Source: Salinivirga cyanobacteriivorans (GTDB lineage Bacteria > Bacteroidota > Bacteroidia > Bacteroidales > Salinivirgaceae). From it: a stretch of DNA of 32,000 bases. The translations under genes were made by a program, and so were the position numbers. Positions 6,092 to 32,000 of the stretch are shown here, one piece after another (within the stretch, counting starts at the first letter, position 1; every line of letters begins with the position of its first letter). The stretch spans positions 1,115,075 through 1,147,074 of the forward strand of contig NZ_CP013118.1 of the NCBI RefSeq assembly GCF_001443605.1, in the 5' to 3' direction. The notes below the pieces were generated by a model that was given only the letters and a program-made list of their open reading frames with translations, was not told where the DNA came from and made no database searches.

Positions 6092-6171
6092 AAGAATTAA
6101 GTCTTGAATTTACATCAAACCACAACTGCGCTTTGTAAAGAGTAAGTTATTTTCATGTTTTTTAAAGTCTT
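6091..6171 (-). CRISPR. Leader-distal fragment of the CRISPR array: degenerate terminal repeat, one spacer, and the 15-nt half of a repeat split by an IS
   Basis: Bases 6101-6126 match the repeat exactly (gtcttgaatttacatcaaaccacaac), while the adjacent 10 nt are diverged. The spacer is 6127-6156 (30 nt). Bases 6157-6171 (gttttttaaagtctt) are the first 15 nt of the repeat on the + strand. The terminal repeat abuts the ygiQ stop codon. Confidence 0.9.
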
Positions 6172-7793
6172 CCTGTTTTCCGGATAGGACACCCATTTTT
6201 AAAATTTCGAGTTTATTAGGTCAATAATGTTTTGTTGAGTTTCATTGTTCCTAAGTAGAATTCTTTTATTACCGACTTGAATTTCATACATCTTATTTAT
6301 AGCTTTAATTGCTTTATTTATAGATATGCCAGTGTCATTCTCTTTAAGTGTTTTTTCTAATTCTTTGTACAGTAAGTATGAAACAAATGAAATACAAATA
6401 TGAGCTTCAATTCTTTCTTTTAATCGATGATAAATTGGTCTGATTTTAAGGTCAGTCTTAGATATCCTAAATGCTTTTTCAATTTTCCATAGGTTATTAT
6501 AGTTTTCAATTACTTCTTTCCCTGATAGTTTTGTGTTTGTGAGATATCCCTTTAAACCATCCCATGTAGAATCATTTCTAAACTTTTCATAATCAATATT
6601 TATCTTGAGTTCTCCTTGCATTTTTAGATACTTGTTGTAACCACGGTTGTTAATATTGCTTTTTGTCAATCGACCTGCATTTAGGCTTTTCTCTAATCTT
6701 TTTAATCCACGTTCTCTATTTGAAAGGTCTTTCTTTGCCCTTTTATCAGAAAAACTTATAAATAAGACAGTGTTATCTGGCTTTTCTATTTTTGCAATTT
6801 GTCCATCTTGCAGGTTCAGTTCCCTGATCTGTTTTTTTATGATATTATTTTCATTTTTGATTCTTGCTCCTAAAATGAATGTATATCGATTGATTTTCAG
6901 TGACTCAATATTTTTTGCTGATAATAACCCGGCATCAGCTACTACAATGGGTTTATTTAAACTAAACCGCCGCTCAAATTTTTCTAATATAGGGATCAAA
7001 GTATGGCCTTCATAGATACTACCTTCAAAAATATCGTATCCAATTGGATACCCTTCCTTGCCGACTAGCAGCCCTAAAAATATTTGTGGGTGCTGGTGTT
7101 TCCCATCCTTTGAGAAACCTGTTTGTTTTAGTTCGTCTGGTTGACTACTTTCAAAATAAATCGTAGTCATATCATAAAAGACAATTCCTATTTTGCCCCC
7201 CAATACTTTTTTTGTGTATTGAAAACTGATCTCTTCAACTTGCTTTTTATACCTCGAGTTTAAACGATCCATGAAATAATAAATCCTATCTACAGAAATA
7301 TCTGATTTATGGTTTTCCTGTAGATATAGAGATAAATTAAGTTTACTGCCTGGATGTGTTATCCTGGAAATACACAAGGCTTTAAACAACTCATCCTTTA
7401 TTTGATTAAATCCTATATAATTGAAAATTTTGCTGAAAATAAGCTCAGGTCCAACTACATGAATATCATCATTTGTTAGATCGCATATTCTGGATTCTTT
7501 TAGTGGATCAAATAACGTAGGGCCATATAAACGAGGCAGTTCATATAAGGCTTTGTAATAAAGTCGTTCAATTTCATCTGGTTCTGATGAGGAGCCTATA
7601 GTCTTGATAACTTTATTACTCCTATCAATTTTCTTAATGATTTGAATGCTTACACTACCACTTTTATTTTTCTTCTTCCGAACAAACATTCAACAAATAT
7701 AGCACGGGACACCCACTTTTAAAAGAATCATTATGATAATGTGCTGATAACTAATAGCTTATTTTTTTAGGTGAAAATAATCCGGAAAACAGG
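6172..7793 (-). mobile_element. IS1634/IS4-like insertion sequence (1622 bp) inserted in a CRISPR repeat
   Basis: The ends carry perfect 14-bp terminal inverted repeats: CCTGTTTTCCGGAT at 6172-6185 and its reverse complement at 7780-7793. A 4-bp direct duplication TCTT (6168-6171 and 7794-7797) is present, and the two repeat halves sum to 36+4 nt. The element holds a single DDE transposase ORF. Confidence 0.85.
6199..7689 (-). CDS. IS1634-family (IS4-related) DDE transposase
   Basis: The 496-aa ORF has an N-terminus (MFVRKKKNKSGSVSIQIIKK...) typical of IS1634-type transposases. It fills the IR-bounded element. Confidence 0.7.
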   Translation of the reverse strand: MFVRKKKNKSGSVSIQIIKKIDRSNKVIKTIGSSSEPDEIERLYYKALYELPRLYGPTLFDPLKESRICDLTNDDIHVVGPELIFSKIFNYIGFNQIKDELFKALCISRITHPGSKLNLSLYLQENHKSDISVDRIYYFMDRLNSRYKKQVEEISFQYTKKVLGGKIGIVFYDMTTIYFESSQPDELKQTGFSKDGKHQHPQIFLGLLVGKEGYPIGYDIFEGSIYEGHTLIPILEKFERRFSLNKPIVVADAGLLSAKNIESLKINRYTFILGARIKNENNIIKKQIRELNLQDGQIAKIEKPDNTVLFISFSDKRAKKDLSNRERGLKRLEKSLNAGRLTKSNINNRGYNKYLKMQGELKINIDYEKFRNDSTWDGLKGYLTNTKLSGKEVIENYNNLWKIEKAFRISKTDLKIRPIYHRLKERIEAHICISFVSYLLYKELEKTLKENDTGISINKAIKAINKMYEIQVGNKRILLRNNETQQNIIDLINSKF

Positions 7794-9332
7794 TCTTGAA
7801 TTTACATCAAACCACAACTAGTGAACAAGTTGAATATGCTATCGAAAAGTTTTTTAAAGTCTTGAATTTACATCAAACCACAACTCCTGTGCCTTGCTCC
7901 CCCCCAGTTAATAGTTTTTTAAAGTCTTGAATTTACATCAAACCACAACATGTTACCTTTGGAACGCGCCTGGACAGTTGTTTTTTAAAGTCTTGAATTT
8001 ACATCAAACCACAACGCAAGGTTTATGGGAGTGGCAAAAAAAGAGTTTTTTAAAGTCTTGAATTTACATCAAACCACAACTTTACAAAAATCTCGGTCCC
8101 GTTTTCATCGTTTTTTAAAGTCTTGAATTTACATCAAACCACAACACCTTTTTGACCAACGCTTTGACACTTGTGGTTTTTTAAAGTCTTGAATTTACAT
8201 CAAACCACAACTAGGCAACTTCTGTCATTTCTCTATTCTTAGTTTTTTAAAGTCTTGAATTTACATCAAACCACAACAGGTATCACTGATACATTAGGTA
8301 GATATATGTTTTTTAAAGTCTTGAATTTACATCAAACCACAACAAGGAGATTTTAGCGAGTTAAAACATGTTGGTTTTTTAAAGTCTTGAATTTACATCA
8401 AACCACAACTTGGGAAATTAATTGAAAGACAGGTAATAAGTTTTTTAAAGTCTTGAATTTACATCAAACCACAACTAATAATTGATTTTCCATGTTGTTT
8501 AAATCGTTTTTTAAAGTCTTGAATTTACATCAAACCACAACATAAAAAAAACTATAATGCCACGAAAACCGGTTTTTTAAAGTCTTGAATTTACATCAAA
8601 CCACAACATATTGATTTAAGCACCCGTATTGACGGCAGTTTTTTAAAGTCTTGAATTTACATCAAACCACAACAGCGATGTGGGTGTCGGTTGAATTTAA
8701 ATCGTTTTTTAAAGTCTTGAATTTACATCAAACCACAACGAGCCCATCATGGGGCAATGATGCAAGAATGTTTTTTAAAGTCTTGAATTTACATCAAACC
8801 ACAACATCTATTCAACACGAACCGGACGTATGTAAGTTTTTTAAAGTCTTGAATTTACATCAAACCACAACACTGGAACAATTAGCACCACAGCAGGACA
8901 AGTTTTTTAAAGTCTTGAATTTACATCAAACCACAACGGCCGAATAAAAAAGCGATAAATTGCGTTAGTTTTTTAAAGTCTTGAATTTACATCAAACCAC
9001 AACACCTTGTTTTTCTGCAACCTCTTCAGCTTTGTTTTTTAAAGTCTTGAATTTACATCAAACCACAACTTGGTGGCTTCATCAGCAGTTTGCCTGTATG
9101 TTTTTTAAAGTCTTGAATTTACATCAAACCACAACGTGATGATGATTATAATGTGACATTACAAGGTTTTTTAAAGTCTTGAATTTACATCAAACCACAA
9201 CGATTATTTTTTTTTGATTCCGCTTCAATGGTTTTTTAAAGTCTTGAATTTACATCAAACCACAACATCTGCGCCCTTGTCAAAGGTGCATCAAATGTTT
9301 TTTAAAGTCTTGAATTTACATCAAACCACAAC
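7794..9332 (-). CRISPR. Main CRISPR array block: 24 repeats (the first is the 25-nt half of the IS-split repeat) and 23 spacers
   Basis: In crRNA orientation (minus strand) the repeat is GTTGTGGTTTGATGTAAATTCAAGACTTTAAAAAAC (36 nt). Every full copy I read is identical. There are nineteen 30-nt and four 29-nt spacers, which sums exactly to 1539 bp. Orientation follows from tracrRNA anti-repeat pairing and from the degenerate terminal repeat at the far end. Confidence 0.97.
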
Positions 9333-9562: not shown

Positions 9563-9901
9563 TTAGAATATTTCCAACTGCTTTGGCCCTTCGGGCAAGG
9601 GATCTTCTTTCACGCCCCAATAATTTACAATATTCCCATACTGTTTATCCGTTATGCGCAAAATACTGACTTGCCCTTTTTCCGGGATGAAGTTTTTTAT
9701 GCGTTTTTCGTGCACATCGGCACTCTCTTTACTGGCACAATGCCGGTTGTAAACCGAATACTGCATCATACTAAACCCATCACGCATCAAATCTTTGCGG
9801 AATCTGGCTGCAGCCTTCCGTTCTTTTTTAGTGTTGGTGGGTAAATCGAAAAATACAAACAGCCACATAATATGATAAGCATTTAACCGGTTTTGTTCCA
9901 T
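9563..9901 (-). CDS. cas2: CRISPR-associated endoribonuclease Cas2
   Basis: The 112-aa ORF lies 4 nt downstream of cas1. It has a type II Cas2-like sequence (YHIMWLFVFFDLP...MQYSVYNRH). Confidence 0.9.
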   Translation of the reverse strand: MEQNRLNAYHIMWLFVFFDLPTNTKKERKAAARFRKDLMRDGFSMMQYSVYNRHCASKESADVHEKRIKNFIPEKGQVSILRITDKQYGNIVNYWGVKEDPLPEGPKQLEIF

Positions 9902-9905
9902 CGCA

Positions 9906-10796
9906 TTAAATCAATATTGGGTATTCTATATTTTTTTTATCCCTGGTAAAGCATGCTGCCAATGATGCGGTAGTATGTGTAATGGCCACCATAAGTGGAC
10001 GGGTTTGTTTTTTCATACCCACATCAACAGATAGCACTTGTAACATCTCCGCCTTAATTTCTTTATGCATTTCGGTTACATCAGGGTATTTCTCACATAC
10101 ATTCCAAACGGCCATATCTACAAAAGGCCGGTAGGGCTCCATGATATCATCAGCCAGACAAAAAGCATTGTATCGGTTGTGATGAAATATGCCAAAAGAA
10201 GGGAAAAGGCCAGAACCGGTCAGTGCCCTGGCCACTGCTGCCCGAAGCACAATATAACCGTAATTTAAAAGGGCATTGGGCCATTTTCCATACCTGTCTC
10301 TCAAAAATGACTGACCAAAAATACGTTGCCAGTAAACTCTGGCGGCCATACCTTCGCGATTATCAACATCGCCACTTTTTACCCGGCTTGCCAAATGTGG
10401 CAGGGGATTCGGGTCAGCTCCAATTTTCTCCAGCAATTTAGCCTGGTTAGCAATTTTGGCTGCTACAGTTTGCTTCCATAAGTTTTTCTTCAATGGTTCC
10501 GAAGCAGTAATTTGTTGACGATAAATTTCAGTTTGTTGATGATGCCCTTCCATATTGAGCAGCATAGATTGCGGATGATGCCGGCTATCGCAGAAAACAA
10601 CAGCTACATTGTGATTCATGAGTTCTTCAATTAATGGCGATGAAACAGTAATTTGTTGGTTTTCAAGGATCATGAATCCAATATCTTCAACAGGTACATT
10701 TTTAACATCACTACCATTTTTCGGATCAAAAACCAGTTGCATATCTTTAACTGATAAAAATCCGGGGCTGGAGAAATAAATTGTACGTTTCAACAT
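9906..10796 (-). CDS. cas1: CRISPR-associated endonuclease Cas1 (type II)
   Basis: The 296-aa ORF carries conserved Cas1 motifs: NALLNYGYIVLRAAVARAL and FHHNRYNAFCLADDIMEPYRPFVD. Confidence 0.92.
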   Translation of the reverse strand: MLKRTIYFSSPGFLSVKDMQLVFDPKNGSDVKNVPVEDIGFMILENQQITVSSPLIEELMNHNVAVVFCDSRHHPQSMLLNMEGHHQQTEIYRQQITASEPLKKNLWKQTVAAKIANQAKLLEKIGADPNPLPHLASRVKSGDVDNREGMAARVYWQRIFGQSFLRDRYGKWPNALLNYGYIVLRAAVARALTGSGLFPSFGIFHHNRYNAFCLADDIMEPYRPFVDMAVWNVCEKYPDVTEMHKEIKAEMLQVLSVDVGMKKQTRPLMVAITHTTASLAACFTRDKKNIEYPILI

Positions 10797-10870: not shown

Positions 10871-11511
10871 TTAAAAATCAATATATTTAAGCGCTACGCT
10901 TTTATTAACCAATGTTCCATTCCTTAGCCCTGCATAATCTTTTGCCGACGAAAATTCCCATTCTTCAGGCTTCGCAACCAAACCGGCTTTCACCGGATTT
11001 TGATGAATATAGTTAAAGCAAGCTTGTGGATACTCTTTTTTGGGGTTGCTTACATGAACTTGCGTACCAAATTCGGTTGTATAAAACGTTGGTGTGATAC
11101 CGTTTGGGCAGTTGATACATTCGGCTTTGGTGGTTTTACGGAAAAGTGAACCCGAACGGTTTTGCTGTTTGTTGATCGCGTTAGTGTATGACCGCAGCAT
11201 GATGCCGATAGAATGCTTTATGGTTCGAGAATTCCCGGAACCGAACGTTTCATGCCTGCTACCGAGGGTTTCGCTTGGAGCGAAGCCCTCGGTACGTCTG
11301 CGATTTTCTTCCTTAACGGGTAATTTTACATCATTCACCAACACCATCAAATGAAAATGATTCGGCATCAGGCACCAGGCTAAAATATCACAAAATGGCA
11401 GCATATATTTCCTCACTTTTTTCAAAAAGAAAAGATAATTCTCCCTCTCAAAAAACACTTTACCCCGGTTGTTTCCCTGGTTGTAAATGTGGTATATGTA
11501 TCCTTTTTCGA
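10871..11511 (-). pseudogene. HUH/Y1 tyrosine transposase (RAYT / IS200-like, PF01797-type), 5' end severed by the IS3 insertion
   Basis: The ORF has the HUH motif (MPNHFHLMV) and the catalytic Tyr motif (YIHQNPVKAGLV). The reading frame stays open upstream of the tracked start through GYIYHIYNQGNNRGKVFFEREN, up to the IS3 end at 11511. Deleting the IS3 and one TSD copy joins the frame to ATG GAA at 12781-12786 (minus strand), giving MEIEKGYIYHIYNQGNN... (about 215 aa). Confidence 0.7.
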
Positions 11512-11568: not shown

Positions 11569-11889
11569 ATGAGTGTACGAAGAAAGAAGTTTGACAAAGA
11601 ATTTAAAAAAATGGCAGTAGAGCTTTGTCAGACACAGCAAAACAGGCCAAAAAAGGAAATTGCACAAGAGTTGGGCATTACAGACAACATGTTAAACCGT
11701 TGGGTCAGGGAGCATGATAAATATGGAGATAACAGCTTTGCTGGACAAGGCAGGCCTGTGATGACCGACAAGGAGAAAGAGCTGGCACAGCTTCGAAAAG
11801 AACTGCGGGAAACGCAAATAGAGCGCGATATCTTAAAAAAGGCAGTGAGCATTTTCTCCAAGGGCGACAGCAGAAATACGAATTCATAA
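11569..11889 (+). CDS. IS3-family transposase OrfA (HTH DNA-binding part)
   Basis: The 106-aa ORF has an IS3 OrfA-like sequence (KKFDKEFKKMAVELC..., leucine-zipper-like C-terminus). The slippery site lies near its 3' end. Confidence 0.85.
   Translation: MSVRRKKFDKEFKKMAVELCQTQQNRPKKEIAQELGITDNMLNRWVREHDKYGDNSFAGQGRPVMTDKEKELAQLRKELRETQIERDILKKAVSIFSKGDSRNTNS
11835..11841 (+). other. Programmed -1 ribosomal frameshift heptamer A AAA AAG of the IS3 element
   Basis: AAAAAAG lies in orfA, and orfB is in the -1 frame relative to orfA. This is the classical IS3-family OrfAB fusion signal. Confidence 0.6.
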
Positions 11890-11891
11890 AC

Positions 11892-12746
11892 ATGTACCAG
11901 CAAGAATTTGCTGTTGAGAAAATGTGTAAAGTGCTGGGGGTGGCAAGAAGTAGTTACTATGCATGGTTAGAAAGGAAACCATCAGCGAGGGTCATGGAAA
12001 CGATAAGGTTGATGAAAAAAATCGGAGAAATATATCATGATAATAAAGGGCGTTACGGGAGCCCAAAGATAACCGATGAGCTGAATGAGCAGGGGTTTCA
12101 GGCATCGCGCCCGCGTATTGGCAGGATGATGAAGAAAATGGGGCTTCGGAGCATTACCCGCAAAAAGTACAGGGTAGCTACGACGGATTCAAACCATGGG
12201 TTCCGGATAGCTGAAAACATCCTGAAAAGGGAGTTTTACCAGGAAGAGGTTTCTAAGGCATGGGTATCAGACATCACATACGTCCCCACGGCAGAAGGGT
12301 GGTTGTATTTGACCATCATCATGGACTTATTTGACCGTAAAATCGTGGGATGGTCGCTTTCAGAAGACTTAACCACTGAGGCTACGATCATCCCGGCCTG
12401 GCAAATGGCCAAAACCAACCGGCCAGTAGCACCCGGGTTGATTTTTCACTCTGACAGGGGCGTGCAATATGCCGCAGATAGCTTTAGAAAAGAATTAAAA
12501 GGCAATGATGTGGTTCAAAGCATGAGCCGCAAGGGCAACTGTTGGGACAATGCAGTGGCCGAAAACTTCTTTAAAATCATCAAGTCCGAGATGATTTATC
12601 ACTATGATTACCGCTCTGTAAAACAAGCAAAAAACGCAATTTTTGAGTTTATAGAAGTATGGTATAATCGAAAAAGAAAACATGCTTACCTGGGATATAA
12701 AACACCAGAAGCTTTTTCAAATTTTTTAAATATGAACGCGGCTTAA
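11892..12746 (+). CDS. IS3-family transposase OrfB (DDE/RNase H-fold integrase core)
   Basis: The 284-aa ORF has a DDE region: WVSDITYV, HSDRGVQYA and NAVAENFFKIIKSE. It is probably expressed as an OrfAB fusion. Confidence 0.88.
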   Translation: MYQQEFAVEKMCKVLGVARSSYYAWLERKPSARVMETIRLMKKIGEIYHDNKGRYGSPKITDELNEQGFQASRPRIGRMMKKMGLRSITRKKYRVATTDSNHGFRIAENILKREFYQEEVSKAWVSDITYVPTAEGWLYLTIIMDLFDRKIVGWSLSEDLTTEATIIPAWQMAKTNRPVAPGLIFHSDRGVQYAADSFRKELKGNDVVQSMSRKGNCWDNAVAENFFKIIKSEMIYHYDYRSVKQAKNAIFEFIEVWYNRKRKHAYLGYKTPEAFSNFLNMNAA

Positions 12747-12841: not shown

Positions 12842-15800
12842 TTATATTTTTTCGATTTGGCCGAGGATATTGATTTTAATTTTTATTGGATGAACTTTCT
12901 CCCAGGCAGTAAAACTTGCAATTCTAATTTCCTCCTCCTTTTTATTAAGTGTTGAGGCAAGATGAAATCTAAATGAATAATCACCGCCAGAAACTTTTTG
13001 TACTCTATACAAATACTTACTCAAAATCTTTTTATCAATAGTTAAAAGATTATTTGCTTGTTCGCTATCTAGTCCCAATAAAAACATATCGTTTACTTCT
13101 AAAGTTGTAACTTTCTCTTTACCATCTGGTGGGAGCTGATACACATCTTCCTTTTGACTTTTTCGCTCCACAGCTTCCCATAGAGTCACAACACTTTCAC
13201 GTAACTTTCCTTCATTATCTCGATAAATTAAAACGTGATGGTTATTACGGGGATTCACATACTGATTCACGTTTTCAGAAGGCTTTAACATTTCTGTATT
13301 GCCTAAATTCTCTCTAATGCGAACCTTTTTTATAGGAACCCTGTCACCATTTTTGTTCGGAAGGGTATACAACAGACGGATTTCTTCTTCTAAGCTTTTA
13401 ATTTGCTCATCAATGTTTTTTTCTTCTATATCGCCAGCTTTTGTCCGATCTTTTTGTAAAGCTGTAATTTGTGCTTTCAAAATCTTTTCTCTTTCGCGGG
13501 CATGTTTTACAATTCTTTTAACATTCTCATCTACAATTTTATCTAATTGGTTATCTTTTAAATCCTTAAGAAATTTGCGCTTATGGAAAGACTGTTCTCC
13601 CATTGGAGGCTTTCTTTTGCCGTAAATATATTTTTTATGTAATTCACCACGAACCGCCTGTCCTTCACTTAAAAATTTCTTTCCATTCTTCTCAATAAAC
13701 ATTTTAACTTTTTTTGTAACAGTATTGTCTTTATGATATGAAACTAAAATGTTTCCAGCTATTTGTTTGGCTTGTTTGAAAAAACCGTCCCATGGTTCAT
13801 CAAAAGATGGTTTTTCTGCTGCATTCCCTTTTTGGAGTGTATCTTTTTCAGCATTGTACCGGTTCAATTGGTTGATAATATTATAATCTGTAAGAGCAAT
13901 GGTTATAGCATCAATAGCATGATGCCTGTGATCATCCCTATTCTTTTTCGGATCAAAGCGAATTTCTCCGGTTTTGTGATCTACCCATACTTTACCTTCA
14001 ATTAGTTTTTCATTGTCATCAATTTCCGGCGGCTTGTTTTCAATAGCAGTAAACTCAGGTTCAGCAGACAAGATATTAAGTACTGCCCAATACCTTCCGG
14101 GTTTTTCATCCCAATCAAACTGCAACTGCATATCATGAATGGCGGTAAATTTCTTTTCTTCATTCACATCTCCTAAAACCAGAATTTGATTTTCTCGAAT
14201 CTCAGGTTTCTTGTTTTTAGTTGGAATAAATTCAACATTATCAAAATCTAAATCAAGCAACACCCAGTATTGGCCATCCTTCAAATCTGTTTCGCACTGG
14301 TATATGTATGATGTAAAATGATTATCTTTTACCTTTCCAAAAAGGCAAATTCCATTTTTATTCTCAGGTCGTTTATTTTTCTCCGGTATTTCAAAACCTT
14401 TATCAATTATCTTAAATTTCGCCCAATATTTACCATCTTCGAGATTTTCATTCACATCAACGCGTTGCTTCAAACTATCGTGCTTAAATTTATTTCGATT
14501 AATCAATCCCCTTAAAATAACTTCATTATCCGCATATTCAGGCTTTTCAATATATTGCCTTATTGTTTCAACAGGATTTGAAACAGGAAATTTTACATAA
14601 TATTTGCCATCGGGTATTTCAGGAGCATCAAACTCAAGATTAAGTCTCTGCGATTTAAATTTATTTTTAGTGACATTTCCTGCAACAACCGTTTCACCTT
14701 CTGCGACATCAGGTCTCGGGTTATTGGTAGGATATAATTTTCTAATATTCTTGTTTTCGTCAGTTACAGCCCAATATGAAAGACTTTTATTCTCATCAAT
14801 ATCGAAATTGTCTTTAGGCAATCCAATTGTTGGTTGAAGTATATTATTTAAACCCCACAATCTTCTGAGGTCTGCCGTTACAGCACCTGGCATAACTAAA
14901 ATCTCATTACATACTTCAGAAAGCACTTCTTTGGTTTTCCTGCTTATATATCGATCGTCATTCAATTGGCGGGAAATAAACTCTTCTGTTTTCCACTCTA
15001 GTTTTTTTGTAGTAAATCGCTTTGCCTTATTAAAATGTAAAATATTGTACGCTCTTTGTTCAATTTCATCCCAACTGGCAGCGCCCCACAACTTTTTATC
15101 GCTATTTTTTAAATAGAATTGATATGGAGTTAAGTTGCCTTTTAGTTGATTAAACTTTGCATCGCATAATGTTTTATTAGCAAAACTATCATCTTGGGAG
15201 TAACTTCTTGGAATAATATGTTCTATTTGAACCTTATTCCCCACTCCCAGCAAATCGCTAATATTTAAAGCCTTCCCGGTATATGGACAAATAACCTTGC
15301 CTGTTTTATCTTGAATTTCATTAAAAAGAAGCACTTTTTGAATGTTTTGTCTGGAAGGTGCTAATTGATATTCTTTTAATATTTCGCGCACATTTTCATT
15401 AGCCTCGAAGTTCTGTCTAATCGCACGAGATAATTCATTTCGGCCTTTTTTGCCCAATTTCATTTCCCGTCCCATCTCTACTACAATCCTGTCAAATTTT
15501 CCATGTTTTTTCAATAATTCATTAACCATTCGTCTCATTTCTTGCACTGCCCGCTGAACAATGGGATTTCTCAGATTTTCAATTTCCGATATTTTATCTG
15601 ACTTTTCCTTTTCTTCAATTTCCTGACTATGATGATAGAGTTTTTTTAATGCCGGAGAATTCTGTTCAAACCCATATTCATTTATTGGATTAGTTAAATA
15701 TTCCTTTATCCGCTCTATTGTTTCTCCCTGTTTATTTTTTTGATTTATTATAGAAAGAATATCTTTAACTATTGTATCGTGATCATCTTCGAACCTATCC

Positions 15801-17422
15801 CATCGTGGAACTTCATCGCTTTGTACTTTATAATTAAAAGCGTTCTTAACTCCTCCTAAAACAACCGCCTGATTATATAACAATCCTCGCTTCAAGAATG
15901 GTAAGATATTGCGAACAGCTTTCAGTGATATACGGGCATATGCATCATCTTTAATACTAATTTTTTTAATATCATCTAAGGTAATCTTATCTTTTAATTC
16001 GTAAGCTTTTGCATTTGACAGCTTTTTAAATAATAATTCAGAATCATCATAAAAATAGAAGTCATGCCAGATATTGTGATAGTTCTGTGTCCAGCCACTT
16101 CCACTAAAAAGCTTACTTAATTGTGCAATGGTAGGACACCCTTCAACTTTGTCATCATCTTTATAATTAAAATTCTCATGCGACATTTGCAGCAATTTGA
16201 TAATATCTGCAAATTTCACTGCTGATTTCTTTGTTTTTAGGTAGCCTATAATTTTCTGTTTTTGCTCCAGAGGTAATGGTATATTATTTCCAAATTTTAT
16301 TGTATTTACATATAGCCAGGCCCTATAAATTTCAAAGTCAGGATGTGAAATTGATACCGGCGTCTTATTCTTTTCATAACGACATTTCCCCAATAATTTC
16401 TTTTGAGATCGCAAGGGTCGCTGATAAAACAAAACACTATCCTTATTATCAAATTTAACTTTATCATCCTGAAGTTCAATTCTTCCTCCTAAATGATCGT
16501 GTAATGATATGTTTTTATAAGAAGTTACACGAGTTAGTTTTTTATTAGCATTTTCCCTCCGAATAATAATCTCATCTATATCAACTTTATCGCGGTGTTT
16601 TTTCAAATACTCTATCTTTTTTGCATTTCTGTTCCGGGTTTTCCCTCCATTCAAAAAAACAATTTTCTTTTTTGTAACATTAACTTTATCCAGCCCAAGT
16701 CTTTTCGCTTGTTGATTCCATATTTTTTCAAACTCCTCAACATACATATCCCGTAAAGTATATCTTCCTCTTATTCTTAAGTCATCACCCTTCTTGTCGC
16801 GCATATTTTGAAATGATTCGTTGTCTTCCGGGTAAATAGAGTAAAGGTATTCACCAAGGGTATTGCTATTTAAAGCTTCTTTAGTATCATCAATACCAAC
16901 CATATTTTCTTTACCGGTGTAAATTTTTCCGGTATCTTTTTCCTTGCGGGAACTCAAAAAACCTCTTCGCTGAATCATATGATACAACAATCGGCCAAGC
17001 TCCATTTTGGTTAATTCTCCATTAACACCTCTATTTCGAAGATCATAAGGATTGAGAGTTAACCATTCAGAAAACCTCTCGTTTTGAGGAAAATGTCTTC
17101 CTTCACTTTTCTTACTTTTATCCCAATGTTTCCAAACCATCAACTGATCTTTAGTCAACGGACACATATCTTGCTCAATTAGTAACTCTAATAACTTTAT
17201 TTTCCTGAACCTTCGTCTTGCAACTTGCCGTCTAATCTGCCTGTTTTCTGTTCGCAATGCATTTTTTGATTTTTCTCTTCCCTCGCCTTCATTTTTATTT
17301 ACAACACCTTCCGGAAAAATCCTTACTCCGGAATCTTCAATTTGTTCTTGTTCTTTATCCACCACAGCCCATCCAATGCTGTTGGTGCCCATGTCTAATC
17401 CTAAAATGCGTGTCATATGCAA
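12842..17422 (-). CDS. cas9: Cas9 endonuclease, type II-C, unusually large (1526 aa)
   Basis: RuvC-I is ILGLDMGTNSIGWAVV (aa 6-21). The Arg-rich bridge helix is RRQVARRRFRKIK. RuvC-II is RIVVEMGRE (about aa 645-652). HNH is QIEHIIPRS...NKTLCDAKFNQLKGN (about aa 732-763). RuvC-III is DHRHHAIDAITIA (about aa 1164-1176). cas1 and cas2 lie downstream, and no csn2 or cas4 is visible in the window. Confidence 0.97.
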   Translation of the reverse strand: MHMTRILGLDMGTNSIGWAVVDKEQEQIEDSGVRIFPEGVVNKNEGEGREKSKNALRTENRQIRRQVARRRFRKIKLLELLIEQDMCPLTKDQLMVWKHWDKSKKSEGRHFPQNERFSEWLTLNPYDLRNRGVNGELTKMELGRLLYHMIQRRGFLSSRKEKDTGKIYTGKENMVGIDDTKEALNSNTLGEYLYSIYPEDNESFQNMRDKKGDDLRIRGRYTLRDMYVEEFEKIWNQQAKRLGLDKVNVTKKKIVFLNGGKTRNRNAKKIEYLKKHRDKVDIDEIIIRRENANKKLTRVTSYKNISLHDHLGGRIELQDDKVKFDNKDSVLFYQRPLRSQKKLLGKCRYEKNKTPVSISHPDFEIYRAWLYVNTIKFGNNIPLPLEQKQKIIGYLKTKKSAVKFADIIKLLQMSHENFNYKDDDKVEGCPTIAQLSKLFSGSGWTQNYHNIWHDFYFYDDSELLFKKLSNAKAYELKDKITLDDIKKISIKDDAYARISLKAVRNILPFLKRGLLYNQAVVLGGVKNAFNYKVQSDEVPRWDRFEDDHDTIVKDILSIINQKNKQGETIERIKEYLTNPINEYGFEQNSPALKKLYHHSQEIEEKEKSDKISEIENLRNPIVQRAVQEMRRMVNELLKKHGKFDRIVVEMGREMKLGKKGRNELSRAIRQNFEANENVREILKEYQLAPSRQNIQKVLLFNEIQDKTGKVICPYTGKALNISDLLGVGNKVQIEHIIPRSYSQDDSFANKTLCDAKFNQLKGNLTPYQFYLKNSDKKLWGAASWDEIEQRAYNILHFNKAKRFTTKKLEWKTEEFISRQLNDDRYISRKTKEVLSEVCNEILVMPGAVTADLRRLWGLNNILQPTIGLPKDNFDIDENKSLSYWAVTDENKNIRKLYPTNNPRPDVAEGETVVAGNVTKNKFKSQRLNLEFDAPEIPDGKYYVKFPVSNPVETIRQYIEKPEYADNEVILRGLINRNKFKHDSLKQRVDVNENLEDGKYWAKFKIIDKGFEIPEKNKRPENKNGICLFGKVKDNHFTSYIYQCETDLKDGQYWVLLDLDFDNVEFIPTKNKKPEIRENQILVLGDVNEEKKFTAIHDMQLQFDWDEKPGRYWAVLNILSAEPEFTAIENKPPEIDDNEKLIEGKVWVDHKTGEIRFDPKKNRDDHRHHAIDAITIALTDYNIINQLNRYNAEKDTLQKGNAAEKPSFDEPWDGFFKQAKQIAGNILVSYHKDNTVTKKVKMFIEKNGKKFLSEGQAVRGELHKKYIYGKRKPPMGEQSFHKRKFLKDLKDNQLDKIVDENVKRIVKHAREREKILKAQITALQKDRTKAGDIEEKNIDEQIKSLEEEIRLLYTLPNKNGDRVPIKKVRIRENLGNTEMLKPSENVNQYVNPRNNHHVLIYRDNEGKLRESVVTLWEAVERKSQKEDVYQLPPDGKEKVTTLEVNDMFLLGLDSEQANNLLTIDKKILSKYLYRVQKVSGGDYSFRFHLASTLNKKEEEIRIASFTAWEKVHPIKIKINILGQIEKI

Positions 17423-17428
17423 TTATTT

Positions 17429-17460
17429 TTTGTTTTTTCTGTATTCCTTTTTTATATTTG
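17429..17460 (+). promoter_or_regulatory. Candidate Bacteroidota-type promoter of the tracrRNA (-33 TTTG / -7 TATATTTG)
   Basis: TTTG at 17429-17432 and TATATTTG at 17453-17460 are separated by 20 nt. The element lies only 7 nt upstream of the divergent cas9 start codon (17422). Confidence 0.45.
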
Positions 17461-17463
17461 TGT

Positions 17464-17538
17464 ATTACATCTTATCACAATAAGGCTATATGCCGAAGGT
17501 GTTAAAACCTATACTCCCGCTTCGGTGGGAGTTTTTTT
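17464..17538 (+). ncRNA. tracrRNA (compact, about 75 nt; 5' end uncertain)
   Basis: The anti-repeat ATTACATCTTATCACAAT (17464-17481) pairs with crRNA repeat positions 1-17 as 8 bp, a UU/UU mismatch, then 7 bp, including two G:U pairs. A nexus-like AAGGCTATATGCCG follows immediately (compare SpCas9 AAGGCUAGUCCG). The RNA ends in a terminator: CTCCCGC-TTCG-GTGGGAG plus T7 (17514-17538). Confidence 0.75.
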
Positions 17539-17818
17539 ATGATCATTTTTAAATGCATTATACTTTATTGTACCGACAACTAGTGTCGGTCCAAGCTAAA
17601 AATGACTCAATACTATTAAATATCAGAACATCGGTTTTCGGTTGGTTAATTTCAAGGGCAGTTTACCAAAGTTAATAATAAAAATCCGGAAACAATGTTA
17701 TTTCACTTTCTTTCATGAAAAGGCGGTATAAACTAAGAGTACATAATTTTTTACTCCAATGCAAAACGAGCAGTTAATGGACCTAAAAAAATGATTTTTT
17801 GAATTGAAGGTTTTAAGC

Positions 17819-31246: not shown

Positions 31247-32000
31247 TTGCTCAAAGTAATGCTGATTGACGCTAAACTGTTACGTTGGCCCAGGTGTCAT
31301 TGCGGTTGTCCAAAATTAGCATTCAACATACTTTTGTTTACATGAATGTTTTCTCGCAAAGCACGCCACGAGAATAATACGCAGCGCACGCCACGATTTC
31401 CTGCGTTGCGATCGTTGCGCCTTCGTTGCGAACGTTGCGTGAAATAATATTCGAGGATATCATTGATAAACTTCATGAAAAACTTCAGGGCCTTGCTCAA
31501 AGTAATGCTGATTGATGCTGAACAGGTACGATGGCCCAGGAGTCATTGCGGTTGTCCAAAATTAGCATTCAACATACTTTTGTTTACATGAATGTTTTCT
31601 CGCAAAGCACGCCACGAGAATAATACGCAGCGCACGCCACGATTTCCTACGTTGCGATCGTTGCGACTTCGTTGCGAACGTTGCGTGAAATAATATTCGA
31701 GGATATCATTGATAAAACTTCATGAAAAACTTCAGGACCTTGCTCAAAGTAATGCTGATTGATGCTGAACAGGTACGATGGCCCAGGAGTCATTGCGGTT
31801 GTCCAAAATTAGCATTCAACATACTTTTGTTTACATGAATGTTTTCTCGCAAAGCACGCCACGAGAATAATACGCAGCGCACGCCACGATTTCCTGCGTT
31901 GCGATCGTTGCGACTTCGTTGCGAACGTTGCGTGAAATAATATTCGAGGATATCATTGATAAAAACTTCATGAAAAACTTCAGGACCTTGCTCAAAGTAA
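31247..32000. repeat. Tandem repeat of a 246-248 bp unit, at least 3 copies, continuing past the window end
   Basis: The anchor ttgctcaaagtaatg recurs at 31247, 31493, 31740 and 31988. The units are near-identical and differ mainly by A3/A4/A5 in gataaa(a)(a)cttcatg plus a few substitutions. Confidence 0.95.

Follow-up and report, generated by a model that had tools for sequence, protein, structure and literature searches.

A clade-specific array of five homologous beta modules in the RuvC-III loop of large Bacteroidota Cas9s, with a possible steric role at the non-target-strand cleft

A Cas9 gene of Salinivirga cyanobacteriivorans raises the question of what fills the long stretch between two neighbouring motifs of its RuvC nuclease domain, where this stretch came from, and what it might do to the enzyme. 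We analysed a window of 32,000 nucleotides that contains the gene (contig NZ_CP013118.1, positions 1,115,075 to 1,147,074), for which an initial annotation had proposed five tandem modules beside the RuvC active site. The features of the locus and of the protein are collected in the table.

The encoded protein is a Cas9: it scores 520.8 bits against the curated model TIGR01865 (cut-off 100), with one stretch of the match on either side of the module array, it has a split RuvC domain with an inserted HNH domain, and it is accompanied by a CRISPR array and a predicted tracrRNA. Translation probably starts at an ATG at codon 3, giving a protein of 1524 aa, the same as in the closest homologs. The catalytic residues of RuvC and HNH, described as intact in the initial annotation, are all present, namely D10 in GLDMGTNSIGWA (RuvC-I), E649 in VVEMGRE (RuvC-II), the EH/N residues of the HNH motif IEHIIP...NKTLC...N, and H1168 and D1171 in DHRHHAIDA (RuvC-III), which correspond to H983 and D986 of SpCas9. 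The locus contains only cas9, cas1 and cas2, without csn2 (II-A) or cas4 (II-B), as in subtype II-C; the same three genes are the only ones that recur in 23 related loci, with no conserved accessory gene among them. The anti-repeat of the candidate tracrRNA is predicted to pair with the CRISPR repeat (RNAduplex, -20.8 kcal/mol) and its terminator lies at 17513-17532. An Rfam scan of the window returned no matches. An IS1634 element breaks the far end of the CRISPR array, which resumes at about 6098-6175. The other ORFs that lie among the cas genes or near them are of the IS3, REP-tyrosine-transposase-like and IS1634 transposase types or code for a channel of the ClC type and a radical SAM protein. 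From the intact motifs and the complete locus (predicted tracrRNA, cas1, cas2, at least 24 spacers), we infer that this Cas9 is a functional nuclease.

Table. Positions of the CRISPR-Cas features and of the parts of the Cas9 insertion in the window.
Feature	Position	Strand	Evidence or description
CRISPR array	7793..9332	-	36-nt repeat GTTGTGGTTTGATGTAAATTCAAGACTTTAAAAAAC, about 24 repeats, 30-nt spacers
cas2	9563..9901	-	Pfam CRISPR_Cas2, 71.8 bits
cas1	9906..10796	-	Pfam Cas_Cas1, 111 bits
cas9 ORF	12842..17422	-	1526 aa from TTG; ORF list, TIGR01865, Pfam HNH_4 and RuvC_III
RuvC-III catalytic motif DHRHHAIDA, aa 1164-1172	13907..13933	-	motif search, Pfam, alignment to PDB Cas9s
Whole insertion, aa 857-1163 (neck and five modules)	13934..14854	-	outside Pfam/NCBIfam Cas9 models
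Module 5, aa 1109-1163	13934..14098	-	module HMM, 51 bits
Module 4, aa 1050-1108	14099..14275	-	module HMM, 59 bits; strongly acidic
Module 3, aa 997-1049	14276..14434	-	module HMM, 62 bits
Module 2, aa 939-996	14435..14608	-	module HMM, 49 bits
Module 1, aa 879-938	14609..14788	-	module HMM, 52 bits
Neck (pre-module segment), aa 857-878, GLNNILQPTIGLPKDNFDIDEN	14789..14854	-	family consensus GLNNILQPv..ld
Left flank motif ADLRRLWGL, aa 850-858	14849..14875	-	final RuvC-III element ahead of the insertion
HNH nuclease domain core, aa 712-767	15122..15289	-	Pfam HNH_4, 74.9 bits
Candidate tracrRNA	17449..17539	+	divergent from cas9; anti-repeat, CACAAUAAGG, terminator hairpin with T-run

Among proteins in the PDB, the best sequence matches to the window Cas9 are compact II-C enzymes (E 1e-36 to 1e-30), that is, Nme1Cas9 (6JDV/6KC8) and Cas9s of 1055-1095 aa (8HNT, 9AR4, 8JTJ), which have the same RuvC-I/II/III and HNH catalytic motifs, the same layout of cas9-cas1-cas2 plus tracrRNA, and a 36-nt repeat. 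The short spacing that had been attributed to such enzymes was recovered: 6-14 residues separate the W..L motif from the HH motif in 8hnt and 9ar4 (HMMER), about 6-14 lie between W(G/N)(L/F) and the HH catalytic helix in these solved enzymes, and the count for compact II-C Cas9s is 8-18. In the window Cas9, W856 (LRRLWGL) and D1164 (DHRHHAIDA) are 308 residues apart, and the array provides about 300 of the roughly 450 extra residues, in line with the view that it makes up much of the excess size.

The motifs listed in the initial annotation lie exactly where they had been placed (ADLRRLWGL at 850, SYWAV at 882, KYYVKF at 940, KYWAKF at 998, QYWVLL at 1051, RYWAVL at 1110 and DHRHHAIDA at 1164), and its interval of 13943-14788 is equivalent to aa 879-1160. 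The left flank ADLRRLWGL aligns with AHLRSRWNFN and ALLRSRWGL in PDB Cas9s and, presumably, with SDFRKDFQF of SpCas9. The TIGR01865 match ends at aa 859, and the Pfam RuvC_III match (105.6 bits) picks up again at aa 1148, profile position 77. The insertion is thus beside the RuvC-III catalytic helix, as proposed, but not in a linker between HNH and RuvC; it interrupts the Pfam RuvC_III unit itself, at the loop that matches SpCas9 973-980. The neck is predicted to contain a short strand at aa 866-868, and at the other end, the final hairpin of module 5, EGKVWVDHKTGEIRFDPKKNRD, continues into the RuvC-III catalytic helix.

The five modules, each of 53-60 aa, share the consensus G-x-Y-W-A ... P-x2-N-x-K-P ... 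G-x-V-x-K-x-x-F, and their homology was evaluated by three internal comparisons. In Smith-Waterman alignments, 8 of the 10 module pairs scored above 300 shuffles (z 2.6 to 12.6); in hhalign comparisons of module profiles built from 121 homologs, all 10 pairs reached 95-98.6% probability (E 1e-8 to 1e-15); and a module HMM trained with the window protein left out found exactly five copies, at 882-931, 939-993, 997-1049, 1050-1096 and 1109-1155 (49-62 bits each), with no further copies in the remainder of the protein. Together, these results rule out chance similarity or a low-complexity artefact, and they bear out the five-fold repeat that had been read from the letters. No tandem repeat was detected at the DNA level in the insertion region, and the duplication is therefore ancient; a recent DNA duplication is also ruled out by the divergence of the modules, which are 13-53% identical to module 1.

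The array was found in every measurable member of a clade of large Cas9s (1450-1600 aa, mostly from Bacteroidota) that is known from at least 120 clusters of proteins and some 50 species-level genomes, with a spacer of 304-333 aa and a single six-module case. Of 120 homologs, those that could be measured have 304-317 aa there; the range is 305-333 aa for divergent representatives at 50% identity and 305-325 aa across about 44 genome loci. The five-module count and the length are nearly invariant down to about 27-30% identity, and about 900 nt of array coding sequence are kept in every clade member. A search of 1.84 billion representative proteins with the module HMM returned 35 matches, of which 33 come from Cas9s or pieces of Cas9. 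The matches of two further proteins (P0150, P0154) are weak or partial and look convergent, and we do not count them as occurrences of the module in other protein families.

The lengths of the spacer at this site are trimodal among relatives (15-18, 71-75 and 304-319 aa). No spacers between 80 and 300 aa were found among the relatives, and no forms with 2-4 modules or decayed intermediates among about 250 sequences. Loops of 15-18 aa occur in 25 of 81 relatives with the same core. The nearest array-less relatives (loci L053, L064, L075; P0156-P0232) are uncharacterised Cas9s from Chitinophagales, Chitinophaga and other Bacteroidota. They have about 1090-1235 aa in total and 71-79 aa in the spacer, and share 33-36% identity with the window Cas9 over about 1000 aa; they are the closest array-less proteins in our sample, at 424-592 bits, where the remaining II-C enzymes without an array reach no more than 307. 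Their spacer probably represents the ancestral single module, because hhalign pairs it with the module profile (91.4%, E 9e-7) and it contains GEY.A and G.V.KG.F strands as the array modules do; these proteins differ in having one module rather than five and in a K/E-rich, probably helical linker that replaces the N-x-K-P loop of the array. Most likely, the array arose by amplification of the single-copy module that survives in these nearest array-less relatives, here those with about 1210-1235 aa, a scenario based on moderate profile similarity and BLAST ranking. The clade thus offers a natural experiment in domain birth: close relatives have zero, one or five copies of the module and nothing between, so that reciprocal swaps are directly testable.

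An AlphaFold2 model of the array is all-beta (pLDDT 87.3, pTM 0.68; MSA of 26 sequences). In a two-module construct, confidence drops in the half that is without its neighbour, and the modules therefore appear to interlock. Foldseek found no match at E <=0.001 for the whole-array model in PDB and BFVD, nor for a model of modules 3-4 in PDB; the top 50 matches (PDB, BFVD) contain no Cas9 chains and no beta-propeller or beta-pinwheel, and all have TM <=0.2. At the sequence level, Pfam and NCBIfam hold no domain for the insertion or for 70 individual modules, with no TOBE match among them; phmmer of the array against PDB sequences found no Cas9, the module profile gave 0 matches in PDB at E up to 10, and a condensin match of 21 bits in the PDB sequence search is spurious. 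The statement that the repeat has no counterpart in characterised Cas9 structures therefore agrees with the sequence, profile and structure searches alike. The initial annotation had also considered that the segment might be an ordinary, already characterised domain of large Bacteroidota Cas9s. It is ordinary for its clade, of which it is a fixed feature, but we found no characterisation of it: Cas9 is heavily studied, yet this clade-fixed domain of ~300 residues is covered by neither Pfam nor NCBIfam and has no solved or similar structure, and the literature that we searched neither describes it nor yielded an experimentally characterised member of the array clade.

To our knowledge, no large Bacteroidota Cas9 other than CbCas9 has a structure. 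This II-C enzyme from Chryseobacterium (1442 aa; PDB 8IYQ, 8WMH and others) resembles the window Cas9 in its size and lineage and is the best PDB match for its C-terminal half, but the similarity is distant, ranking behind the compact II-C enzymes at E 1e-30, and its spacer at the site has 50 aa, WGLNDVWNDLILPRFERMNQLTNSKDFTAWNENHQKFLPTVPIEFSKGFSKKRIDHRHH, with no evident module; the first 15 residues of this spacer did not match the module HMM. The C-terminal helix of CbCas9 binds a PIN-domain protein, PcrIIC1 (PMC13153721), and no PIN-domain gene is present in the window cas locus. Cas9s of clade X have repeats of 45-50 bp (PMC7606464); among them is the Cas9 of Flavobacterium frigidarium (1345 aa, 45-nt repeat), the sole Bacteroidota enzyme in a 79-ortholog catalogue. 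Membership of the window Cas9 in a CbCas9-type group or clade X is ruled out by its 36-nt repeat, the lack of a PIN-domain gene, and the distant similarity to CbCas9. Another large enzyme, Fp2Cas9 (1548 aa), carries the catalytic Glu of HNH at residue 868 (PMC12609912), a position like that in CbCas9 and unlike that in the array clade (about 730-760), and is probably not a member of the latter.

The array is thus a clade-specific domain of five homologous all-beta modules, spliced into the RuvC-III loop before the catalytic His/Asp helix. By a loop-level motif alignment, it appears to replace the loop Y973-N980 of SpCas9 (with K974 and R976), which occupies the same RuvC-III position, with the helix ...DFRKDFQF before it and the catalytic helix of H983/D986 after it. 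The SpCas9 loop is basic and 8 residues long, whereas the window Cas9 has a 308-residue acidic beta domain there. Mutations in the Y973-N980 loop alter the placement of the non-target strand and the cut position (bioRxiv 10.1101/2022.03.10.483793), and because the array is sited at this loop, it may alter R-loop dynamics, cut geometry or specificity, all of which are relevant to genome-editing tools.

Within the protein, the array is the region with the most constant length (CV 0.014) and the lowest mean pairwise identity (0.42, as compared to 0.51 for the PI domain and 0.55-0.72 for other regions). Most of its residues conserved at >=85% are Gly, Pro or aromatics, as would be expected of structural roles. 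Module 3 is the best conserved of modules 1-4 (FKSYIYxCxTN and the QPKK loop), and aa 1151-1175, from the end of module 5 into the catalytic helix, have the highest conservation in the protein (0.92). The array has a mean net charge of -6 and a pI of 5.8, as compared to +50 and 9.4 for the remaining Cas9; the family means of single modules include +2.0 for module 2, +2.7 for module 3 and -6.5 for module 4.

We propose a steric role, because only shape and size are conserved, the surface varies, and the array is acidic overall. The five interlocking modules would fold as a single rigid body, which a conserved neck of two strands (LQP..l.. and GEIKFDPKKNR) would anchor to the rim of the non-target-strand cleft next to the RuvC active site. 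Rather than bind DNA in general, this body would line the RuvC side of the cleft as a wall or lid. Such a wall could guide or confine the displaced non-target strand and hamper its re-annealing, thereby tuning R-loop stability and the site or rate of the RuvC cut; the mildly basic modules 2-3 may contact DNA, and the enzyme would otherwise be an ordinary tracrRNA-dependent type II-C Cas9. As a whole, this explanation, in which a clade-specific five-module domain came from the amplification of one module and acts as a steric wall at the cleft, is tentative, at slightly less than an even chance. The stronger proposition, that the array is an undescribed fold born by one-to-five amplification and serves the enzyme at the non-target-strand cleft as a beta assembly, either closed or length-critical, is possible and on balance unlikely. 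Such an assembly would change the holding and cutting of the displaced strand, for example by stabilising the R-loop, by shifting or staggering the RuvC cut, or by altering fidelity. If it were true, the clade would be a structurally distinct Cas9 sub-lineage with properties absent from compact II-C enzymes. The patterns of charge and conservation would also fit a protein-docking platform or a tolerated passenger.

As a tolerated passenger, the array would be an expanded loop repeat that folds stably, became fixed, and is kept since its loss destabilises RuvC, with no specific contribution to targeting or cleavage. The low sequence conservation is consistent with this, as are the absence of any known functional motif in the array, the abundance of array-less relatives with 15-18-aa loops, and the solved II-C enzymes of 1050-1100 aa that do without it. 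However, a passenger would hardly keep its module count, length and roughly 900 nt of coding sequence across the whole clade with no partial or decayed forms seen, nor strongly conserved segments in modules 3 and 5, and we consider this reading improbable. About 0.9 kb might be removed from the gene for smaller enzymes if the array is dispensable; otherwise, the array is a handle that cannot be removed.

To a platform for protein-protein interactions we likewise give little credence. Here, the array would dock another macromolecule, for example Cas1-Cas2 when spacers are acquired in a PAM-dependent manner, a host factor (repair, helicase or nuclease), or a further Cas9 to give a dimer. Scaffolds typically have beta surfaces of this kind, acidic, rigid and built from repeats, and CbCas9 offers a precedent of a large Bacteroidota Cas9 that uses a partner via a dedicated extra element (PMC13153721). 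That partner, however, binds the C-terminal helix, away from this site, and CbCas9 has no array; together with the absence of a conserved accessory gene, this rules out the array as an adaptor for a PcrIIC1-like partner encoded in the locus and argues against docking more generally. The surface sequence of the array is also the least conserved in the whole protein, which argues against a fixed partner unless that partner co-evolves or binds only the conserved patches of module 3 or 5.

The steric reading also has to be weighed against a built-in binder of single-stranded DNA, in which OB-like (TOBE/MOP-like) barrels would grip the displaced non-target strand as an SSB/RPA array does and stabilise the R-loop, offsetting the weak DNA unwinding that has been reported for II-C Cas9s. 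TOBE/MOP-like barrels are small, five-stranded and occur in tandem. The C-terminal TOBE/OB-like domains of two ABC-transporter ATPases, which are regulatory, are the only structural neighbours of the array with appreciable Foldseek probability: those of CysA (1Z47; prob 0.90, 120 columns, rmsd 4.6, E 0.42, TMq 0.20) and GlcV (1OXX; prob 0.69, non-significant at E 0.4 or worse). The alignments span roughly two array modules, and a module of about 55-60 aa with about 5 strands suits a small barrel. Aromatics (Y-W and F) and a loop with K/R-Pro are retained in every module, and the array would be located at the non-target-strand cleft. The two families, however, have no sequence or Pfam relationship, the E values and a TM of about 0.2 are poor, and the two-module model has no match, so that the resemblance in the predicted fold is a lead and not a classification. 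The acidity of the array beside a strongly basic remainder of the protein, and conserved residues that look like core residues under variable surfaces, also speak against a grip on DNA, and this alternative seems quite unlikely.

Least probable, and very unlikely in our view, is a shield or decoy that covers or mimics nuclease-lobe surfaces targeted by phage inhibitors: the array lies on the nuclease lobe, is acidic where DNA mimicry is frequent in anti-CRISPR biology (AcrIIC5 is reportedly an example), and diverges fastest over long distances as in an arms race, but we know of no anti-CRISPR against the clade, and at short distance the array is 91% identical to the homolog P0002, as compared to 81% for WED/PI and 89% for REC, and therefore shows no sign of accelerated recent change.

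The segment at aa 857-1163 of the window Cas9 is a clade-wide, Cas9-specific, structurally unassigned domain of five repeats, with a function that can be proposed from sequence, and it represents variation within Cas9 rather than a new system. The local alignment scores of 8 of the 10 module pairs exceeded those of all 300 shuffles (z 2.6 to 12.6), and hhalign of module profiles cut from a 121-member family alignment gave 95-98.6% probability for all ten pairs (E 1e-8 to 1e-15). In an alignment of 70 module sequences (consensus G-x-Y-W-A-x12-P-x2-N-x2-P-x10-G-x-V-x4-F), the Y, P, and G columns are near-invariant; an HMM built from it minus the window's own rows detected the module exactly five times in the window Cas9 (49-62 bits each), with no further copy elsewhere in it. 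By these tests the five-module repeat proposed in the initial annotation is real, and its interpretation as a repeat domain added to the nuclease was essentially right. No DNA-level tandem repeat was found across the array region.

The motif positions quoted earlier for this protein were all exact, with W856 of ADLRRLWGL lying 308 residues from D1164 of DHRHHAIDA. When compared with solved II-C Cas9s by HMMER, both flanks align normally and the intervening segment has no match: query residues 850-859 pair with AHLRSRWNFN and ALLRSRWGL, and 1159-1172 pair with the residues directly next in those enzymes. The Pfam RuvC_III match is split in two, with the second piece starting at aa 1148 (profile position 77), and the TIGR01865 match ends at aa 859. 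Together, these alignments place the insertion within RuvC-III itself, where it occupies the loop ahead of the catalytic His/Asp helix. The true start of cas9 is probably the ATG two codons after the TTG (MTRILGLD...), giving 1524 aa as in the closest homologs. The HNH catalytic dyad (window 15226-15231, aa 732-733) is E-H (QIEHIIP), whereas Nme and Ana Cas9 have D-H; the identical E-for-D substitution was noted for Fp2Cas9 (PMC12609912).

A full-length search returned at least 120 homologs (45-90% identity, 1497-1610 aa), and the spacer between the W(G)L and DHRHH motifs is 304-317 aa in every listed homolog with both motifs locatable, except for P0026, a homolog with a 345-aa spacer and a sixth, shorter module. 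When one genome per GTDB species was scanned, the complete array was present in about 50 species, comprising Bacteroidales MAGs (one of them, at 77%, the nearest), Marinilabiliales (Draconibacterium, Saccharicrinis, Mangrovibacterium, Prolixibacteraceae, and Salinivirgaceae), Flavobacteriales (four Flavobacterium species, Gelidibacter, Bizionia, and Halpernia), Cytophagales, one Porphyromonas (29% identity), and a few MAGs whose binning assigns them to other phyla. Against 1.84 billion representative proteins, the module HMM gave just 35 matches at E ≤1e-3, of which 33 were Cas9s or Cas9 fragments; in every full-length Cas9 match with both flanking motifs locatable, the spacer measures 307-333 aa, and five modules can usually be detected. 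The array is not special to this one protein, being shared across the clade, but it is specific to Cas9. The two non-Cas9 matches were weak and partial. P0150, a surface-repeat or autotransporter-like protein of 1828 aa, has eight identical repeats with DGKYYVVLDEENK...NPNMGKPEDG that weakly match module HMM positions 1-18 (E 7e-7), a likeness that is probably convergence, not homology.

The array has the lowest sequence conservation in the family Cas9 (mean pairwise identity 0.42, as compared to 0.51 in WED/PI and 0.55-0.72 in other regions) and is its most length-constant region (CV 0.014). Array positions conserved at ≥85% are mainly Gly, Pro, and aromatics; the exception is the last M5 hairpin (EG.VWVDK.TGEIKFDPKKNRDDHRHH), the most conserved stretch in the entire protein. 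Spacer length is quantised at about 16, 72, and 306 aa, that is, zero, one, and five modules (P0155-P0248; L051-L079). Among 81 proteins related to L064, a locus with a single-module Cas9, the spacers were 15-18 aa (n = 25), 71-75 aa (n = 36), or 304-319 aa (n = 20), and 53 genome loci had 16-25, 55-79, or 305-325 aa; no spacer between 80 and 300 aa occurred in either set, nor any form with 2-4 modules in about 250 related sequences. Spacers of 71-79 aa align with the profile of the module over the stretch GEY.A to G.V.KG.F (hhalign 91.4%, E 9e-7), with weak scores of 4-10 bits against the plain module HMM. Within the sample, no array-less relatives come closer to the clade than the Cas9s that carry them (1213-1235 aa), which show 33-36% identity and 424-592 bits, as compared to at most 307 bits for other array-less II-C enzymes, and the size gap between single-module and five-module Cas9s is nearly all array. 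The simplest reading of these lengths and alignments is that one module was amplified to five and then frozen.

The initial annotation did not recognise the array from characterised Cas9 structures, and our searches agree. The array alone had no meaningful match in a PDB sequence search, the module profile had zero PDB matches at E up to 10, and the 70 modules searched individually against Pfam matched no recurrent family. AlphaFold2, given aa 846-1180 and a 26-sequence alignment, produced an all-beta model of high confidence, with pLDDT 87.3 (over 90 within the modules), pTM 0.68, and about five strands per module. Foldseek with this model found nothing at E ≤0.001 in the PDB (to April 2026), with no Cas9 chain among the top 50 matches, and nothing in BFVD. 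The only matches of appreciable probability were the ABC ATPases CysA (prob 0.9) and GlcV (prob 0.69), which aligned locally, across about 120 columns of their TOBE/OB-like C-terminal domains, at E 0.4 or worse. A model of M3-M4 only, which also matched nothing by Foldseek, was confident in M3 and the first M4 hairpin and not in the remainder of M4, and from this loss adjacent modules appear to interlock. The literature searched held no description of the array. Characterised large Bacteroidota Cas9s belong to another type: the CbCas9 spacer at this site is 50 aa with no evident module, Fp2Cas9 appears CbCas9-like, and the Flavobacterium frigidarium enzyme in an ortholog catalogue is a clade X protein of 1345 aa.

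ADLRRLWGL and DHRHHAIDA align with SpCas9 residues 964-972 (SDFRKDFQF) and 980-987 (NYHHAHDA), so that the array, judged by this alignment, takes the place of loop Y973-N980. The SpCas9 substitutions R976A and H982A move the non-target-strand cut (bioRxiv 10.1101/2022.03.10.483793). The array has a family mean net charge of -6 (pI 5.8), with -6.5 in M4 and +2 to +3 in M2 and M3, as compared to +50 (pI 9.4) for Cas9 outside it. With one short loop for both entry and exit and a fixed count of five modules, the insertion is more likely to be compact or closed than to form an open rod. We tentatively propose that the array would be a rigid interlocked body, anchored at the cleft rim via a conserved neck, and may serve as a wall or lid shaping the non-target-strand path and R-loop behaviour. 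Its interlocking, invariant module count, variable surface, acidity, and anchor all point to this steric role more than to general DNA binding. An OB-like ssDNA binder, which would go with the TOBE/OB-like matches and less with the acidity, is unlikely; equally improbable are a docking platform, against which speak the variable surface and the finding that no accessory gene is shared across the clade's loci, and a tolerated passenger, in keeping with the low identity and less so with the constant length. An anti-CRISPR shield, to which a variable surface might be suited, is the least probable, and very unlikely beside the steric wall or lid.

Features of the cas9 locus and array modules (window positions unless marked aa)
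Feature	Position	Strand	Remark
cas9 ORF	12842-17422	-	1526 aa; ORF list, TTG start
M1	aa 879-938		segment cut for repeat tests
M2	aa 939-996		segment cut for repeat tests
M3	aa 997-1049		segment cut for repeat tests
M4	aa 1050-1108		segment cut for repeat tests
M5	aa 1109-1163		segment cut for repeat tests
Candidate tracrRNA	17449-17539	+	divergent from cas9; anti-repeat to 36-nt repeat
IS3-family element	11569-12746	+	between cas9 and cas1; strand opposite cas genes
IS3 orfA	11569-11889	+	
IS3 orfB	11892-12746	+	NCBIfam transpos_IS3, 336.9 bits
REP-tyrosine-transposase-like ORF	10871-11458	-	195 aa, LMPNHFHLMV motif; between IS3 element and cas1
cas1	9906-10796		
cas2	9563-9901		
CRISPR array	7793-9332		36-nt repeats, ~24 repeats
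IS1634-family element	~6176-7797		inside CRISPR repeat near array end
IS1634 transposase ORF	6199-7689	-	344.8 bits
CRISPR array remainder	6098-6175		one more 30-nt spacer, then degenerate last repeat

As read from its sequence, the window locus is a complete II-C system. The candidate tracrRNA has a CACAAUAAGG junction resembling those of other II-C tracrRNAs, and its terminator hairpin (17513-17532) precedes a T7 run. No family was matched when the whole window was scanned with Rfam at the gathering threshold. Mobile elements (IS3, a REP-tyrosine-transposase-like ORF, and IS1634) are scattered through the locus, and the IS3 element may uncouple cas1-cas2 expression from cas9. The 195-aa ORF is similar to REP-associated tyrosine transposases, with 47.7 bits against NF047646 (under the cut-off of 80), and of 23 related loci, 5 have ORFs like it adjoining the cas operon. 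The IS1634 element ends in CCTGTTTTCCGG and CCGGAAAACAGG, and the repeat that it interrupts is broken at ...TTCAAGAC and picked up again with AAGACTTTAAAAAAC. Elsewhere, a 247-bp tandem repeat at 31247-32000 (3.1 copies, 97% identity) continues past the window end.
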